From: Promethearchaeota archaeon
Lineage (GTDB): Archaea; Asgardarchaeota; Lokiarchaeia; Sigyniarchaeales; SOKP01
Direction of reading: 5' to 3'
NCBI GenBank assembly: GCA_030599585.1
Contig: JAUVNS010000003.1
Location: forward strand, 64,001 to 128,000
Length of the DNA: 64,000 nucleotides
Position 1 is the first letter of the stretch. Each line of letters begins with the position of its first letter. The notes beneath the pieces were generated by a model that ran no database searches, was not told where the DNA came from, and saw nothing but the letters and a program-made list of their open reading frames with translations. The translations under genes and the position numbers were made by a program. Shown here piece by piece: positions 6,948 through 14,527 of this stretch.

Positions 6948-8201
6948 ATGTCAGTTGATATCTCTAAAATTATTAAAGTATTTTCGAAATTTTTAGATCC
7001 AAAATTAGCGAAAGAGGGAAAGTTGAAGACTATTGATGAAATCAAGAAGCTTCCATTGAACTCATTCAAATTTATGTCTAAAGAAGATGTAAAACAACTA
7101 AAAGAAGTACTAAATTTATCTACTATTGAGGATACTTCCAAATTAGATCGAGAGAACCCTTTTGTTAAGTTAAAGAAAATTAAATCTACCAAAGATTCTA
7201 GTAAAGATGCTAAACTACAAAAAGAAATCGAGGGGAAAGCTGCAGCAATACGAATAGAAAATCCCGATCTTGTAAAAGCATTGAACAAAGCAATCATAAT
7301 TAGCTCGATAATAACAAATTTAACCGATGCGGATGAAATCGTTACTGAGAAATCTGCTCAAAAAATTATTGTTATTGGATTAGATAACGCTGGCAAAACT
7401 GCAATTTTGAACAAGTTTGGAGGGCGGTTAGGCATTAGCGATTTGGCAAACTTGAAACCAACTAAAGGTGTCGATCGCCGTCATATCAAGGCAGAAAATT
7501 CTGACTTAGATTTGTTTATCTGGGATTTCGGTGGTCAGGCACAATATAGATCTAAATATTTAAAAAATCCAGAACAATACTTTTTGCAAGTTGATTTATT
7601 AATTTATGTCATTGATATACAAGATTCTGAGAGGTTTCCAGAATCTTTTGAATACTTCGAGCAAATTCTAAAGACACTCACAATTTTAGAAGAAGACCCC
7701 TTTGTATTAATATATATACATAAATTCGACCCAGATTTAAAGCATGACACTGAAACACTTCTTAACATCGAACTTCTGAAAGATAATTTAAACCAGTCAT
7801 TAACTTCTTTTGGATACGATTACGAAGCTTATCTAACTTCAATCTACTCTTTAATTACTAACGAACCCGAGTTTTCTAAATATCTTAAAGAAGTTATGAA
7901 ATCAACCGACTCTTTAACTAACCCCACTCTAAGGAAAGTAGAAGGATTAGGAAAAACTTTAGAAGAAACTATGAATGCTGTTATTCGACTCTCTGAAAGT
8001 CTTTCAAGGCAATTATCTGATATAGATAGTAGATTGAGGGCCATCGAAAGTGGTGCATTTCAAATGGCTCAGAATGGCATCCCCATAGGACTATCACCAC
8101 CTAATCAAGCTTCAGTTCCCGGTAGGCCTGGGGATTCAAGGTTAAAAGTTCTTGACGAATTAAAGTTGTTGTTCGATAAAAAGAAAAAGTTAAACCTATA
8201 G
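6948..8201 (+). CDS. Multidomain Arf/Rag-like small GTPase with N-terminal HhH-like domain and C-terminal coiled coil
   Basis: G1 GLDNAGKT, switch I PTKG, G3 WDFGGQ, G4 HKFD, G5 TSIY. Heptad region LGKTLEETMNAVIRLSESLSRQLSDIDSRLRAIE. Confidence 0.88.
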   Translation: MSVDISKIIKVFSKFLDPKLAKEGKLKTIDEIKKLPLNSFKFMSKEDVKQLKEVLNLSTIEDTSKLDRENPFVKLKKIKSTKDSSKDAKLQKEIEGKAAAIRIENPDLVKALNKAIIISSIITNLTDADEIVTEKSAQKIIVIGLDNAGKTAILNKFGGRLGISDLANLKPTKGVDRRHIKAENSDLDLFIWDFGGQAQYRSKYLKNPEQYFLQVDLLIYVIDIQDSERFPESFEYFEQILKTLTILEEDPFVLIYIHKFDPDLKHDTETLLNIELLKDNLNQSLTSFGYDYEAYLTSIYSLITNEPEFSKYLKEVMKSTDSLTNPTLRKVEGLGKTLEETMNAVIRLSESLSRQLSDIDSRLRAIESGAFQMAQNGIPIGLSPPNQASVPGRPGDSRLKVLDELKLLFDKKKKLNL

Positions 8202-8988: not shown

Positions 8989-9783
8989 TCAATATGTTAT
9001 ACCTAAAAATTTATAAGCATCTTTGACTTCAGAAATGTTTTCTTGGAAATTTTCAACCGAATGAGAATCTGATCCAACGAAAAATCTAGCTCTTTCTTTT
9101 CTTAACTTCTTAGCAATTTCCCTAGAAGGAAAAGGGCGATCAATGGGAAAACGTAAACCTGATAAGTTATATTCAATCTTAATTTTGTTTTTAATACATA
9201 AACGCCCCAAGTTAAGAACTCGTTCATCTGAAATATCGCAATCCTCTAACGGTTTAATATCATGTTCGTTTATGTATCGATAAATTGTATCGATGTGACA
9301 TATATTCTTGAAAATTTTTGATTCGATCATCATCCTGCTGATCTCAAAGTAATCGTCTATGACTTTTCTCATTTGAACTTTCTCTAACAATTGAAGCAAT
9401 TTAGTTCGTGAAGTAATAGGATATTGGTATACCCATTCATGCAGAGTACCACTAATAAAATCGAGTTCTCTTCCATAGTCATCCATAAATTCTAATAATT
9501 CGATTTCCCTGTCCCGATAATACTCTAACTCGAGACCGCTGAGGATAAACTTATATGTTCCCTTCAAATCGTCAAATTCTTCAAGGTAATCGTCTATCTT
9601 GTCATTATAGAAGGGATTTGATTTGTCTCTTTCGATAGAATAAAGTTCGTAATGCTCGAGAAAACATATGTTAATTTCATTTTCTTCTGCAATTTTGATG
9701 TAATCGTTGAAGTTTGGACCATCTTCTGATATGTCTGAGCTCCAGTTTGTATGTACGTGATAATCAGTATATTTAAATTTCAT
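8989..9783 (-). CDS. PHP-domain phosphoesterase (histidinol-phosphatase-like)
   Basis: Metal-binding motifs DYHVHT, LEH, CHID and GSDSH. Confidence 0.85.
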   Translation of the reverse strand: MKFKYTDYHVHTNWSSDISEDGPNFNDYIKIAEENEINICFLEHYELYSIERDKSNPFYNDKIDDYLEEFDDLKGTYKFILSGLELEYYRDREIELLEFMDDYGRELDFISGTLHEWVYQYPITSRTKLLQLLEKVQMRKVIDDYFEISRMMIESKIFKNICHIDTIYRYINEHDIKPLEDCDISDERVLNLGRLCIKNKIKIEYNLSGLRFPIDRPFPSREIAKKLRKERARFFVGSDSHSVENFQENISEVKDAYKFLGITY

Positions 9784-9832: not shown

Positions 9833-11731
9833 TCAGTCCATAGAATTCTCCCTGTCGAAAAAAACTTCATAAAACAATTCTTTTTCTCCCGCCTCGGGAG
9901 GATTTATCTTCGTATAACCTCCTTTCCTTATAATTTGCACAGTACTTTTATTTTGAATGTGAATGTTTCCGTAAAATCCTTTTATGCCCTTTTCCTTTGC
10001 TATAATTATAAGATGTTGGTATAAGAATGATCCTAACCCCTTCCCTCGATAGTCCTCCCTGACTAAAAAGCTATATTCTGCCATATTTAGCTTAGGATTT
10101 AAGTAATAAGTCGCGTTACCGACCATTTCCTCTTTTCTTACATCACCGATAAAAGCTCCAATTGAAAAAACATTGTTATAATCAATATTAACTTCGTTTT
10201 GCGTCTTTGAATGGGTGAATTCTTTTCTAACTTCGAAAAATCGCAAATATCGATCTGTTTCATTTAAAGAATAATACAAATCTTTTAATAGCGACTCATC
10301 TGTAGTCTTTACTGGGCGAATTTGAATCTTCTCTCCTCCTCTTAGAGTAGATATGGTCACATACTCTGAAGGGTATCTGCAAATTCGTCCTTCTTCGTCG
10401 CATGGTAAAATCTGATCAGAATAAACATATTTCAACTTTTTAGCTTCATCTAACAGCCATTGACGAAAATCAGGATGAGCGACGCATATTAATTCGAGCA
10501 CTCGCTCTCTAATCGTCTTTCCATGAAGATAAGCTACTCCCCATTCAGTTACGACATAATGTGCATCTCCTCGAGATAACATTACTCCCGCACCTTCATC
10601 TAGATGAGGTAAAATCCGGGATTTTTTACCATCACGAGAGACGGATGGCATAATTATTATGGGTTTCCCTCCTTTAGAAAAAGCAGCACCTCTCATAAAA
10701 TCGATGGTCTCTCCTATGCCATTATAGAATCCATATCCTTCAGTTGCTGCGTTTACTTGTCCCGTAAGATCAATTTGTCGAGCTGAGTTGATTGAAACCA
10801 TTTTCTTATTCATTCCTATATACCTAGGATTACATACATAGTCTGAGGGGTAGAATTCGATGTAGGGATTATTATCTACAAAATCGTACAACTTTTTGCT
10901 TCCCAGAGCGAAACTTGTAATAATTTTTTCAGGATGAAAGTTTTTTTTTCTGCTAGTCAATACCCCTTGTTCGATTAAAGGAATAACATTGTCCGTAATA
11001 TAAAGTGAATGCATTCCTAAGTCTTTTTTATCCACTAAAAATTTCAATGCAGCGTTTGGTAAATCGCCAAATCCCACATGAATAGTTGATTTATTTTCTA
11101 TAATATTTGATAAATTTCTTCCTATTTTTTCGGCAATTTCGTCCGGTTCATCGAAATGAAATTCTAACAAAGGTACGTCGTTAACAACAAAATGATCAAT
11201 TTCTTTCATGTGAATAAAACTATTACCTAACGTTCTTGGCATTTGAGGATTCATCTCAACAATGTTTAAAAAAGCTGATTGTGCTAAAGGTTTTGCTATG
11301 TCCACATTAATCCCAAGAGAACAGAATCCATAAGAATCAGGGGGTGTAGCTTGTATAAGAGCAACATCAATATGTTTTCTACCCGTTAAAAATAGTTTGG
11401 GTATTTCACTTGCGTATATAGGAGTATAATCGGCTTGTCCTTTATTAATTTCCTCGCGAAGAGTTTTTCCAATGAATAGTGCATTATGTCTAAAGAGATC
11501 TTCAATTTTATCTTTGAAATATTTCTCTGGGCCAATAGTTAAGAAATGAAGTATTTCAGTATCTATTAACTTCTCAGATTGCTTTATCAATTCTGAAGTG
11601 AGTAATTGTGGTCTCGAGCATCCAGAACCTATAAAAACTCTATTGCCTGGTATAATTTTTTTTATCGCATCCTCAGCAGTAATCTCCTTATCCTTCCACT
11701 TTTCCCGCCATTCTCCATTTGATGAGTCCAT
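9833..11731 (-). CDS. Acetyl-CoA hydrolase/CoA-transferase-family domain (catalytic Glu absent) fused to a Pat-type GNAT acetyltransferase
   Basis: Colinear with 4-hydroxybutyrate CoA-transferases (KLYDFVDNNP, SINSARQIDLTGQV, YVVTEWGVAYLHGKT, AHPDFR). C-terminal GNAT has IRPV...DRYLRFF and YRGKGLG. Confidence 0.88.
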   Translation of the reverse strand: MDSSNGEWREKWKDKEITAEDAIKKIIPGNRVFIGSGCSRPQLLTSELIKQSEKLIDTEILHFLTIGPEKYFKDKIEDLFRHNALFIGKTLREEINKGQADYTPIYASEIPKLFLTGRKHIDVALIQATPPDSYGFCSLGINVDIAKPLAQSAFLNIVEMNPQMPRTLGNSFIHMKEIDHFVVNDVPLLEFHFDEPDEIAEKIGRNLSNIIENKSTIHVGFGDLPNAALKFLVDKKDLGMHSLYITDNVIPLIEQGVLTSRKKNFHPEKIITSFALGSKKLYDFVDNNPYIEFYPSDYVCNPRYIGMNKKMVSINSARQIDLTGQVNAATEGYGFYNGIGETIDFMRGAAFSKGGKPIIIMPSVSRDGKKSRILPHLDEGAGVMLSRGDAHYVVTEWGVAYLHGKTIRERVLELICVAHPDFRQWLLDEAKKLKYVYSDQILPCDEEGRICRYPSEYVTISTLRGGEKIQIRPVKTTDESLLKDLYYSLNETDRYLRFFEVRKEFTHSKTQNEVNIDYNNVFSIGAFIGDVRKEEMVGNATYYLNPKLNMAEYSFLVREDYRGKGLGSFLYQHLIIIAKEKGIKGFYGNIHIQNKSTVQIIRKGGYTKINPPEAGEKELFYEVFFDRENSMD

Positions 11732-11850
11732 ATTCTACACTTTAAGGCTCTAATTTTATTTTGTTTAAAATTTTCCTTTATTATCAAAAATAGTTAAGTC
11801 CTATATCTTTAATATTTTTACTTTAACTTTTTAAGGTAATTCTCTTGGAA

Positions 11851-12156
11851 TTACCTGTTTTTAAAAACTACTGAAAAATAAATAACTCCACTGCCAGAAA
11901 TAACACACCAAATCAATGAAGGGATTAAAAAAACAAGGCGCTGCTCAAAATCTACGGACGGGGAAATTATGTTAAAAATTATTGATAATAATGACGAAAT
12001 AAACATAAACCCCCCAAAAAAGATCATGAATATAATAATAAGTGATTTCGAACTCTTCTTTCTACTCTCAATCATGACACAATTAGCACAAATTCCTATC
12101 TTTTCCTCAAAACCACCCTCGACGAGTTCTTGATCGCAAACTTCGCAATTTAACAT
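11851..12156 (-). CDS. Small Zn-finger membrane protein (two CxxC motifs, two TM helices)
   Basis: CEVC...CANC followed by two hydrophobic helices. Confidence 0.65.
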   Translation of the reverse strand: MLNCEVCDQELVEGGFEEKIGICANCVMIESRKKSSKSLIIIFMIFFGGFMFISSLLSIIFNIISPSVDFEQRLVFLIPSLIWCVISGSGVIYFSVVFKNR

Positions 12157-12544
12157 TATTCTTACTCCATATTATAATTAAATAAAAAGATTATACGATT
12201 ATTTAAAATTCTATTCAAATGAAAACGAATCTTTTCAATAAATTAAAGATTTTCTAATCGATTTATTTTTAATAATTATTAATAAAATTAATCTCTATAA
12301 CTCATAAACAAACTCTAAAAAGAGATTTTGAAAAAAACTTACTTCTCCCATTCCTTAATAAATTAAAGATAAAATGTTTAAATTGAATTCGAAATATTTA
12401 CTCCATGACTTAATACAACCATTTAATTTCTAAAAATTTAAATGTGATGAGAAGGAAAAGAAATCTTTAAAGTTTTTTAAGAATTTAATAAACCAAGAAA
12501 TTTAATTATACAAATTAAGTAGAAATTCAAATTAGTGAAATGTA

Positions 12545-14527
12545 ATGTCAAAAGAAGATAACAAAATGAGAAGTGTTCTAACTGAAAATCGAATTTTTGA
12601 CCCTGTAGAAGTCAGCCCCGAATATGCTAAGACTGGAATGTCAATGGACGAATATAAAAAACTCTACAAGCAATCCATCGAAGATATGGAAGGATTCTGG
12701 GGAGAACAAGCAAAATCGCTTGATTGGTTCAAACCTTACGATAAAGTGTGGGAAAAAACCGATCTCTTTCCGGGAAAATGGTTTGTGGGCGGAAAACTCA
12801 ATGTTTCTTATAATTGTATTGATAGACATGTGAACGCTGGAAATGGAGATCGCATTGCTATCATATGGGAAGCAGACGAGCCCGGTCAAGTAAGAAAATT
12901 TACTTACAACGAGCTTTTAAAAGAAGTAAGTAAAGTCGCTAACGCTATGAGGAGTAAAGGACTTAAGAAGGGTGATAGAGTCACAATATGGTTGCCGATG
13001 ATTCCTGAGTTAGCTATTATTATGCTGGCTTGCACTCGAATTGGTGTCATTCACTCCATCGTCTTCGGTGGTTTCTCAAAAGAAGCTGTCAAAGATAGAA
13101 TCGAAGACTCTGATTCGCGCTTATTATTTACTAGCGATGAAACCTTAAGGGCTGGTAAAACTTATCCTAAAATGGCTGATGTCGTTAAAATAATAGATAA
13201 AGTTCCAACAATTGAACATGTTATTGTCGTTAAACGAACAGGGAACGAGGTCCCTCACACTGATAAAGATATTTGGTACCACGACTTTATAGATGGCGTG
13301 AGTGAAGAATGTGAACCTGAACAAATGGATTCGGAAGATACCTTATTTATACTCTATACAAGCGGAACCACCGGAAAACCTAAAGGCGTTAACCATACAA
13401 CAGCAGGTTATATTCTTCATACATCATTTACTCATAGAGTCGTATTCAACTACAAGGAAGGCGAAATTTGGTATTGTACAGCAGACATAGGTTGGATAAC
13501 GGGTCATAGTTATATCGTATATGGTCCTTTAGCCAATGGAGCAACAACTCTAATGTTTGAAAGCGTACCGACTTATCCCAACGTCGATAGATTTTGGGAT
13601 ATCGTGGAACGCCACAAGGTCAACCAATTTTATACCGCTCCAACCGCCATACGTGCCCTTATGAGACACGGTGATGAGCCCGTTAATAGACACGATTTAA
13701 GCTCTTTAAAAGTTCTCGGGACCGTAGGAGAACCGATAAACCCAGAAGCATGGACTTGGTACCATAGAGTTGTGGGAAAAGAACGATGTCCGATTGTAGA
13801 CACCTACTGGCAAACTGAAACGGGAGGTTTTATTATGACTCCTATAGCTACGGCAACCCCAACAAAACCTGGATCATGTTGCTTGCCTTTCCTTGGTATT
13901 AAACCCATAATTTTCGATTTGGAAGGTGACGAGATCACCGAAGCAAACGAAGGTGGCTATTTTGCAATAGGACAACCATGGCCAGGAATGTTAAGAGATG
14001 TTTGGGGAGATACAGAGAGATTTAAATCTACATATCTCGAAAAATACCCCGGATATTATTACACTGGTGATGGAGCACGACGAGATGACGATGGTTATTA
14101 TTGGATACTCGGACGATTGGACGACGTTATAAAAGTATCCGGACACCGCATAGGAACAATGGAAGTGGAATCTGCTTTAGTGAGTCATCCAAAAGTAGCT
14201 GAAGCTGCTGTTGCACCTTTTCCACATAAAATAAAAGGGCAAGCTATTTGGGCGTTCGTGACATTAATGGGTGGAGTCGAAAAATCAGCCAAATTATCGA
14301 AAGAGCTTCGAATGCATGTTAGACAAGAGATTGGGCCTGTATTTCAGCCAGATGTTATTCAATTTGCTGACGCCTTACCAAAGACGAGAAGCGGTAAGAT
14401 TATGCGCAGGATTCTTAAAGCCATAGCTTCAGGAACAGAAATCGGTAATGTTACGACCTTAGCAGATCCTTCAGTAGTCGATGTTTTGCTTGAAGAGCGT
14501 AAGAAAATGGATGTCGAAGTAGGTTAA
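12545..14527 (+). CDS. acs: AMP-forming acetyl-CoA synthetase
   Basis: YTSGTTGKPKG, DIGWITGHSY, VGEPINPEAW, DTYWQTETGG, LPKTRSGKIMRR. Confidence 0.96.
   Translation: MSKEDNKMRSVLTENRIFDPVEVSPEYAKTGMSMDEYKKLYKQSIEDMEGFWGEQAKSLDWFKPYDKVWEKTDLFPGKWFVGGKLNVSYNCIDRHVNAGNGDRIAIIWEADEPGQVRKFTYNELLKEVSKVANAMRSKGLKKGDRVTIWLPMIPELAIIMLACTRIGVIHSIVFGGFSKEAVKDRIEDSDSRLLFTSDETLRAGKTYPKMADVVKIIDKVPTIEHVIVVKRTGNEVPHTDKDIWYHDFIDGVSEECEPEQMDSEDTLFILYTSGTTGKPKGVNHTTAGYILHTSFTHRVVFNYKEGEIWYCTADIGWITGHSYIVYGPLANGATTLMFESVPTYPNVDRFWDIVERHKVNQFYTAPTAIRALMRHGDEPVNRHDLSSLKVLGTVGEPINPEAWTWYHRVVGKERCPIVDTYWQTETGGFIMTPIATATPTKPGSCCLPFLGIKPIIFDLEGDEITEANEGGYFAIGQPWPGMLRDVWGDTERFKSTYLEKYPGYYYTGDGARRDDDGYYWILGRLDDVIKVSGHRIGTMEVESALVSHPKVAEAAVAPFPHKIKGQAIWAFVTLMGGVEKSAKLSKELRMHVRQEIGPVFQPDVIQFADALPKTRSGKIMRRILKAIASGTEIGNVTTLADPSVVDVLLEERKKMDVEVG

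Follow-up and report, generated by a model that had tools for sequence, protein, structure and literature searches.

Reversible acetylation of acetyl-coenzyme A synthetase (Acs) is the textbook example of metabolic control by protein acetylation and is poorly explored in archaea. In the enterobacterial Pat enzymes, a catalytically dead domain that accompanies the GNAT acetyltransferase binds acetyl-coenzyme A (acetyl-CoA) and is required for allosteric control (PMC8556138). Type III enzymes acetylate Acs by a C-terminal GNAT whose control lies with an N-terminal ligand-binding module of 300–400 amino acids (aa), and the five-type scheme of bacterial protein acetyltransferases, to which these enzymes belong, has no CoA-transferase module (PMC8556138). 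A 2026 preprint on the acetyltransferases of Asgard archaea is confined to histone-directed GNATs, and a full-text literature search found no study of a CoA-transferase–GNAT fusion. The subject of this report is such a fusion, the gene P0001, which lies beside the acs gene in a Lokiarchaeial genome. The DNA analysed (the window) is a 64,000 nucleotide stretch of Promethearchaeota archaeon assembly GCA_030599585.1 (contig JAUVNS010000003.1, positions 64,001 to 128,000).

P0001 fits none of the five published types, because its accessory domain is a CoA-transferase homologue. The protein is read here as a Pat-type lysine acetyltransferase dedicated to the adjacent Acs and carrying a pseudo-enzyme regulatory module; we give this reading a probability of about 60%. 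A first-pass annotation, made from the letters of the window, had proposed a dead CoA-transferase fused to a Pat-type GNAT near acs. The features it described are all found where it placed them, as judged from the open reading frame, its translation, the domains and the codons.

Domains of the fusion protein

P0001 displays the Pfam domains AcetylCoA_hydro (positions 24–188, 1.7e-28) and AcetylCoA_hyd_C (positions 277–430, 7.6e-59), followed by a GNAT domain at about positions 470–606, with a match to Acetyltransf_1 of 1.1e-09. An AlphaFold2 (AF2) model built from 66 sequences has a predicted local distance difference test value (pLDDT) of 90.4 and a predicted template modelling score (pTM) of 0.88, with both domains packed confidently.

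The first 430 residues match the solved 4-hydroxybutyrate CoA-transferases with phmmer values from 4.8e-114 to 6.6e-94. Foldseek comparison of the AF2 model with the AbfT structures 3gk7 and 2oas gives target-normalised template modelling (TM) scores of 0.93–0.95 and a root-mean-square deviation of 1.5–1.8 Å. Fold and homology (PF02550 plus PF13336) thus place P0001 with the AbfT/Cat2 subfamily; the identity of the domain to AbfT-type structures is 32–39%, and the score against the TIGR03948 equivalog model, 246.5 bits, lies below the cut-off of 674.8.

The C-terminal domain is a GNAT of the Pat type, as the first-pass annotation had held. Its best solved relatives by phmmer are E. coli PatZ (9it0/9isq, 1.4e-15) and S. 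lividans PatA (4nxy, 2.8e-15), followed by mycobacterial Pat (4orf, 5e-07) and Sulfolobus Pat (3f8k, 2.6e-06), and the likeness takes in the N-terminal extension of the domain. An IRP motif is found at residue 471. Glu552 aligns with Glu809 of PatZ/SePat, which we take to be the catalytic glutamate (base) of those enzymes. The segment R562-G-K-G-L-G567 conforms to the R/Q-x-x-G-x-G/A definition of the GNAT acetyl-CoA loop (PMC8556138). Both Glu552 and the R-x-x-G-x-G loop are invariant in the clade, and from these motifs the GNAT looks active. It lacks an NDP-forming acyl-CoA synthetase accessory domain such as types I and II carry and has the CoA-transferase homologue. There are two Pat-type GNATs in the genome, and both are fusions, P0001 and a paralogue described below.

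Replacement of the CoA-transferase active site

In the phmmer alignments to AbfT structures, P0001 has LGMHSLY under LG[VI]HTEM, GIGETIDF under G[FT]GGQ[LV]D[FY], and HVGFG under Q[ML]GIG. The catalytic positions were mapped in steps, from P0001 to the paralogue with intact motifs, from the paralogue to E. coli ScpC, and from ScpC to AarC, whose numbering is used for the reference residues. By this route His218 of P0001 corresponds to AarC Gln267, Phe221 to Val270, Leu243 to Glu294, Cys300 to Asn347 and Glu341 to Gly388. The roles of these residues are taken from the literature (PMC4876117, PMC3180442). In AarC the nucleophile, Glu294, is oriented by the carboxamide of Asn347, which also makes up the internal oxyanion hole; the external oxyanion hole is formed by the amide of Gly388, strictly conserved in class I CoA-transferases (PMC4876117). 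By alignment, therefore, P0001 has lost the nucleophile, and other residues stand at both oxyanion-hole positions. On this evidence the N-terminal domain is a descendant of a working AbfT-like CoA-transferase for which the class I mechanism should now be impossible.

The changed motifs GIGETIDF and HVGFG and the leucine codon (CTT) at the glutamate position had been recognised in the first-pass annotation, and alignment and codon bear them out; glutamate is never found at position 243 among the orthologues. That annotation saw two of the three key replacements and overlooked the change of Asn to Cys300. Its check for a migrated glutamate has a divided answer: the residue is lost from position 243, and an acidic residue at position 341 (the E of GIGE) is invariant.

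How the site has changed is seen when P0001 orthologues (136 sequences, 68–97% identical to the window protein) are compared with 62 relatives that have canonical motifs. In the canonical set 71 columns are conserved at 85% or more. The orthologues retain 58 of these, six are relaxed, and seven are true switches, D213N, G214K, Q218H, E243H, N300C, G341D/E and Q342T, all of which lie inside the three active-site motifs. The replacements are fixed or nearly so: His241, Cys300 and Asp/Glu341 are present in all 136 orthologues, His218 in 135 and Thr342 in 131. Position 243 is His in 130 sequences, Tyr in 4 and Leu in 2. Besides the window protein, Leu243 is found only in one 97%-identical sequence, and its codon is one step from CAT. 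By this alignment the leucine in the window is a recent oddity and the clade consensus is His; the leucine that had been reported at the glutamate position is thus present, but atypical.

Mean identity to the window protein is 81% in the CoA-transferase domain and 83% in the GNAT, and 143 of the 416 CoA-transferase columns are invariant. The pattern of conservation is that of a rebuilt active site rather than a decayed one. The earlier description of the domain as dead therefore stands as regards the nucleophile and the oxyanion-hole residues, which are gone, and falls short in that new His, Cys and acidic residues, themselves invariant, have been built into the site. Because purifying selection is strong and the former active site is newly invariant, the domain is likely to be a ligand-binding or scaffolding regulatory module.

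In AarC, Gln267, Glu294 and Gly388 are each about 4 Å from a single ligand atom; Glu294 is braced by Asn347 and touches the Gly388 nitrogen (PMC4876117). Therefore, going by the AarC literature and the alignments, His218, His241, Cys300 and Asp/Glu341 of P0001 should form one cluster. We see an outside chance that these invariant residues, usually joined by His243, gather at the former thioester position as a centre that may bind a metal, or may react through Cys300 with CoA-SH or acyl-CoA (by S-acylation or as a CoA disulfide), and so would gate Acs acetylation by free-CoA, redox or metal status. If true, this would be a sensing principle undescribed for any protein acetyltransferase.

Linkage to acs

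Orthologues with the rebuilt site are confined to the window's own Lokiarchaeial family, where they are found in 113 of 135 genomes. The acs gene adjoins the fusion, almost always in divergent orientation, at 22 of the 28 loci taken with 1.5-kb flanks and at 14 of the 15 taken with 5-kb flanks; nine genera are represented. In the window the two genes diverge and are 813 bp apart with one small open reading frame in the gap, and the lysine of PKTRSGK is kept, all in agreement with the first-pass annotation. Against the curated acetate–CoA ligase models the acs product scores 993.6 bits for NF001208 (cut-off 657) and 965.9 for TIGR02188 (cut-off 724.95). It is the one true Acs of the genome; the next best paralogue is 28% identical.

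A survey of co-occurrence, which the first-pass annotation had called for, agrees with the linkage. Both fusion and Acs are found in 92 genomes of the family, the fusion alone in 21, Acs alone in 5, and neither in 17; the genomes are related and incomplete, and the table is descriptive. Several of the fusion-only cases are contig ends, e.g. acs is truncated at the end in G239, and in G267 the contig stops 1 kb upstream of the gene. In two of the five genomes with Acs alone the acs gene lies at the end of a contig; the other three carry a GNAT-only derivative beside it. Four complete genomes without Acs are also without the fusion gene.

The GNAT-only protein is found in three genomes of one genus (g2) and is 56–58% identical to residues 453–615 of P0001 (L062 7219–7863, minus strand; L072 4100–4703; L073 2502–3105). 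At L072 and L073 a relic of fusion residues 10–48 is present just upstream of the gene, in another frame. This arrangement indicates that the GNAT-only gene is the footprint of an internal deletion that removed the whole CoA-transferase domain, approximately 400 codons.

At one further locus (L040 2692–4823, genome G170) the acs gene beside an intact fusion orthologue matches in overlapping pieces (1–314 and 299–660) with several in-frame stops, and may be frameshifted, a pseudogene or the product of faulty assembly.

The paralogue and the wider family

The same genome carries, on another contig, a paralogue with 49% identity to P0001, the same architecture and all canonical residues, which had been overlooked when the fusion was first noted. 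In a tree of 65 sequences (a quick search without bootstrap), the rebuilt-site clade groups with the intact-motif clade of the same family and with a clade of a sister family, at Shimodaira–Hasegawa-like approximate likelihood ratio (SH-aLRT) values of 95–100. This grouping suggests that the gene was duplicated close to the base of the order.

In two other Asgard families, fusions with intact motifs adjoin acs or are found within 3 kb of it; in one of these (L057 3541–12783) the fusion is clustered with genes for an H+-pyrophosphatase, an MFS transporter and ARPP-1, and with acs. Because intact-motif fusions are linked to acs in these other families, the link appears to predate the loss of catalysis. 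At another locus (L058) two tandem fusion genes are present near acs.

Proteins of CoA-transferase–GNAT architecture are common to many groups, among them Thermodesulfobacteriota, Nitrospirota and methanogens, and carry automatic names only; a cluster look-up of relatives likewise returned generic names only. All three catalytic positions are kept in 26 of 66 fusions versus 36 of 52 stand-alone relatives, counted on 50%-identity representatives, which are not independent samples. From these counts it would seem that a fused CoA-transferase domain can often do without catalysis.

Among the stand-alone AbfT-like proteins, P0238, P0249, P0251, P0252, P0255, P0256, P0263 and P0273 have Gly at the position of the catalytic Glu. 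At least five representatives combine this Gly with His at the Asn position while GGQ is kept, and as aligned the Gly/His combination is a second recurrent active-site variant.

The paralogue gene (L032 7219–9932, plus strand; G000:C35) starts 24 bp after a Sir2-family gene and is followed by a small ACT-domain gene. A writer–eraser operon of Sir2 and paralogue was considered and is kept as a local observation only, as the adjacency is not conserved in 11 genomes.

Proposed mechanism and alternatives

In the proposed mechanism the GNAT would transfer the acetyl group of acetyl-CoA to Lys618, the active-site lysine in the PKTRSGK motif of Acs and the one modified by bacterial Pat enzymes, which would halt acetate activation when acetyl-CoA is abundant. 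The genome contains three Sir2 and four HDAC-type deacetylase genes, and one of these products would reverse the acetylation. The N-terminal module would tune the GNAT by binding a ligand or by providing an oligomeric scaffold, as happens in Pat/PatZ through the dead synthetase domain (PMC8556138). What we infer is the identity of Acs as the target, the sense in which it is regulated and ligand sensing by the N-terminal domain; the target is suggested by the conserved adjacency to acs, the co-occurrence and the intact P-x4-G-K site. When full-length Acs was modelled together with the GNAT region (positions 436–632), the complex scored 0.22 against a mark of 0.32; this prediction was run without controls and counts neither way on binding.

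Several observations weigh against this reading. By gene context, intact-motif fusions are acs-linked elsewhere as well, and the loss of catalysis is thus not what creates the link. A sister protein with a rebuilt site, P0125 (L052 3349–5262; 50% identical), is not encoded beside acs. Its switch positions read His, Phe, Ser and Asp-Ser, and its gene follows those for malic enzyme and an Ldh_2-family dehydrogenase. Judged from the GNAT-only loci, the CoA-transferase module is dispensable in the three g2 genomes, which keep the GNAT beside acs. No Sir2 gene was found within 4–5 kb of the paralogue in the 11 other genomes examined. Finally, the term dead applies to the canonical mechanism only, and the invariant acid at position 341 together with Cys300 could support some chemistry.

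This last point leads to an alternative in which the N-terminal domain has acquired a new activity: Asp/Glu341 as a relocated carboxylate, or a Cys300/His/acid centre, would catalyse hydrolysis, CoA transfer or acyl-enzyme formation in a bifunctional protein. Cys-His-acid centres perform acyl transfer in other enzyme families, and the constancy of positions 341, 300 and 241 and near-constancy of 218 and 243, at places that in AarC surround one ligand atom or buttress the nucleophile, agree with such a centre. Nevertheless Asp and Glu swap freely at position 341, as do His, Tyr and Leu at position 243, an unusual degree of freedom for a residue acting as nucleophile or base, and the g2 genomes dropped the domain while keeping the GNAT beside acs. 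We regard a new catalytic function as decidedly unlikely. If instead the domain were purely a structural or oligomerisation scaffold without ligand, control would lie solely in the availability of acetyl-CoA at the GNAT and in transcription. Such a scaffold would have no need of the rebuilding of a former active site around fixed His, Cys and acidic residues, or of 58 of the 71 enzyme-conserved columns, and is quite unlikely, even though AbfT/RipA-type proteins form tight dimers and tetramers (PMC3180442), the two domains of the model pack confidently, and the acetyltransferase can, as the GNAT-only derivative shows, exist by itself.

The acetyltransferase might also have a target other than Acs, acting as a general acetyltransferase or on a small molecule, with the adjacency to acs arising from a shared response to the supply of acetate or acetyl-CoA. 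Adjacency of genes does not by itself identify a substrate, relatives of the fusion adjoin genes for malic enzyme, citrate synthase and leucine biosynthesis, and Pat enzymes have many substrates (PMC8556138). This explanation is unlikely, given that the pairing with acs spans nine genera and outlives the deletion of the N-terminal domain, that genomes without Acs are largely without the fusion gene, that Acs keeps the P-x4-G-K site, and that the closest solved GNAT relatives act on Acs. A regulated acetyltransferase dedicated to Acs, with a pseudo-enzyme module, thus remains the preferred reading of P0001.

Features of the locus

Coordinates of the fusion, of acs and of the neighbouring features are collected in Table 1. 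The 101-aa open reading frame between the two genes is seen only in some genomes of the window's genus, and in the other genera seen the spacing between acs and fusion is mostly about 170–420 bp. This open reading frame was considered as a third component and ruled out, being absent from most genera; it is probably outside the system. Of 15 orthologous loci, 10 have the PHP gene downstream of the fusion, as do L074 and L075, and it is possibly co-transcribed with the fusion. PHP genes near both paralogous loci were considered as a mark of segmental duplication; outside the shared domain the two proteins are unrelated (28% identity over 39 aa), and they do not constitute such a mark. Elsewhere in the window, positions 6948–8201 (plus strand) encode a 417-aa protein with an Arf/RagA-like small GTPase domain (Gtr1_RagA 3.5e-22, Arf 5.1e-22), typical of Asgard archaea; database hits bear the labels Promethearchaeota or Lokiarchaeota.

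Table 1. Positions in the window of the fusion gene, acs, their key residues and neighbouring features
Feature	Coordinates	Strand	Basis
Fusion gene P0001, CoA-transferase-like/Pat-type GNAT, 632 aa	9833–11731	-	Open reading frame, translation, Pfam domains, AF2 model
AbfT-like class I CoA-transferase domain, residues 7–435, predicted catalytically disabled	10427–11713	-	phmmer, Foldseek, TIGR03948
His218, replaces Gln of Q-L-G-I-G (AarC Gln267)	11078–11080	-	His in 135/136 orthologues
Leu243 (CTT), replaces Glu nucleophile (AbfT LGIHTEM; AarC Glu294; RipA Glu249)	11003–11005	-	Alignments, codon
Cys300, replaces internal oxyanion-hole Asn (AarC Asn347)	10832–10834	-	Cys in 136/136 orthologues
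Glu341-Thr342, replace second Gly and Gln of GxGGQxDF (AarC Gly388)	10706–10711	-	Asp/Glu in 136/136, Thr in 131/136
Pat-type GNAT with N-terminal extension, residues 445–617	9881–10399	-	phmmer to Pat structures
Glu552, aligned with PatZ residue 809 (9it0)	10076–10078	-	Alignment, codon; Glu in 136/136
R562-G-K-G-L-G567, acetyl-CoA pyrophosphate-binding loop	10031–10048	-	Motif; R562 in 136/136
acs, AMP-forming acetyl-CoA synthetase, 660 aa, presumed substrate	12545–14527	+	NCBIfam
PKTRSGK motif of Acs	14378–14398	+	Lys618 at 14396–14398; motif invariant in 16 Acs sequences
101-aa open reading frame, CxxC...CxxC and two hydrophobic segments	11851–12156	-	No family in Pfam or NCBIfam
A+T-rich spacer upstream of acs; with 11732–11850, putative divergent control region	12157–12544	.	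Sequence, conserved divergence
PHP/HisJ-like phosphoesterase gene, 50 bp downstream of fusion	8989–9783	-	Pfam PHP 8e-07; TIGR01856 85.4 (cut-off 90.2)

Significance and comparison with known systems

With P0001 the regulated acetyltransferases would gain a class whose module derives from a CoA-transferase, and the broader fusion family, which spans anaerobic bacteria and archaea, appears unstudied. The Lokiarchaeial family offers a graded series of intact fusion, rebuilt-site fusion and GNAT alone, the last two beside acs, which can guide the comparison of residues and constructs. There is also a risk for annotation: the fusion genes score as 4-hydroxybutyrate or butyryl-CoA transferases by homology, and metabolic reconstructions of Asgard archaea could wrongly count them among the enzymes of fermentation or carbon fixation.

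Of the enzymes to which the N-terminal domain is related, AbfT/Cat2 and RipA (3GK7, 2OAS, 3EH7, 3QLI) and AarC (4EU3) have the same fold. P0001 differs from them in that the nucleophile Glu, the oxyanion-hole Asn and Gly and the gating-loop Gln are absent, and in that a GNAT is fused.

Among acetyltransferases, the type I Pat/PatZ (YfiQ) of Salmonella enterica and E. coli (9IT0, 9ISQ), which is paired with the sirtuin CobB, shares the C-terminal GNAT with its catalytic Glu and R-x-x-G-x-G loop. It also carries, like P0001, a large N-terminal domain taken from an acyl-CoA-handling enzyme whose catalysis is lost, and Acs is the classic Pat substrate. In Pat/PatZ, however, the domain is an NDP-forming acyl-CoA synthetase of approximately 700 aa in a protein of approximately 880 aa, whereas in P0001 it is a class I CoA-transferase of approximately 430 aa in a protein of 632 aa whose gene is paired with acs. 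The type II PatA of S. lividans (4NXY) has a GNAT about equally similar to that of P0001 and an accessory domain that is also dead, but the domain order is reversed and the accessory domain comes from the NDP-forming synthetase family.

The closest match in layout is found in type III, i.e. mycobacterial cAMP-Pat (4ORF/4AVA), the actinobacterial ACT-GNAT proteins and the NADP-sensing MxKat. The modules of these proteins are dedicated small-molecule sensors, whereas that of P0001 is a putative pseudo-enzyme. In the AcuA-AcsA system of Bacillus subtilis (PMC11255334, PMC11910552) the acetyltransferase gene adjoins and diverges from acs, and acetyl-CoA feeds back on the catalytic lysine. AcuA differs in being a stand-alone GNAT of another subfamily without an accessory domain; the GNAT-only derivative of the g2 genomes is like it in layout only. 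Thus the principle of a Pat-type GNAT that is joined to a dead acyl-CoA enzyme domain and acts on Acs is known, and what P0001 would bring to it is the CoA-transferase module and its rebuilt site.

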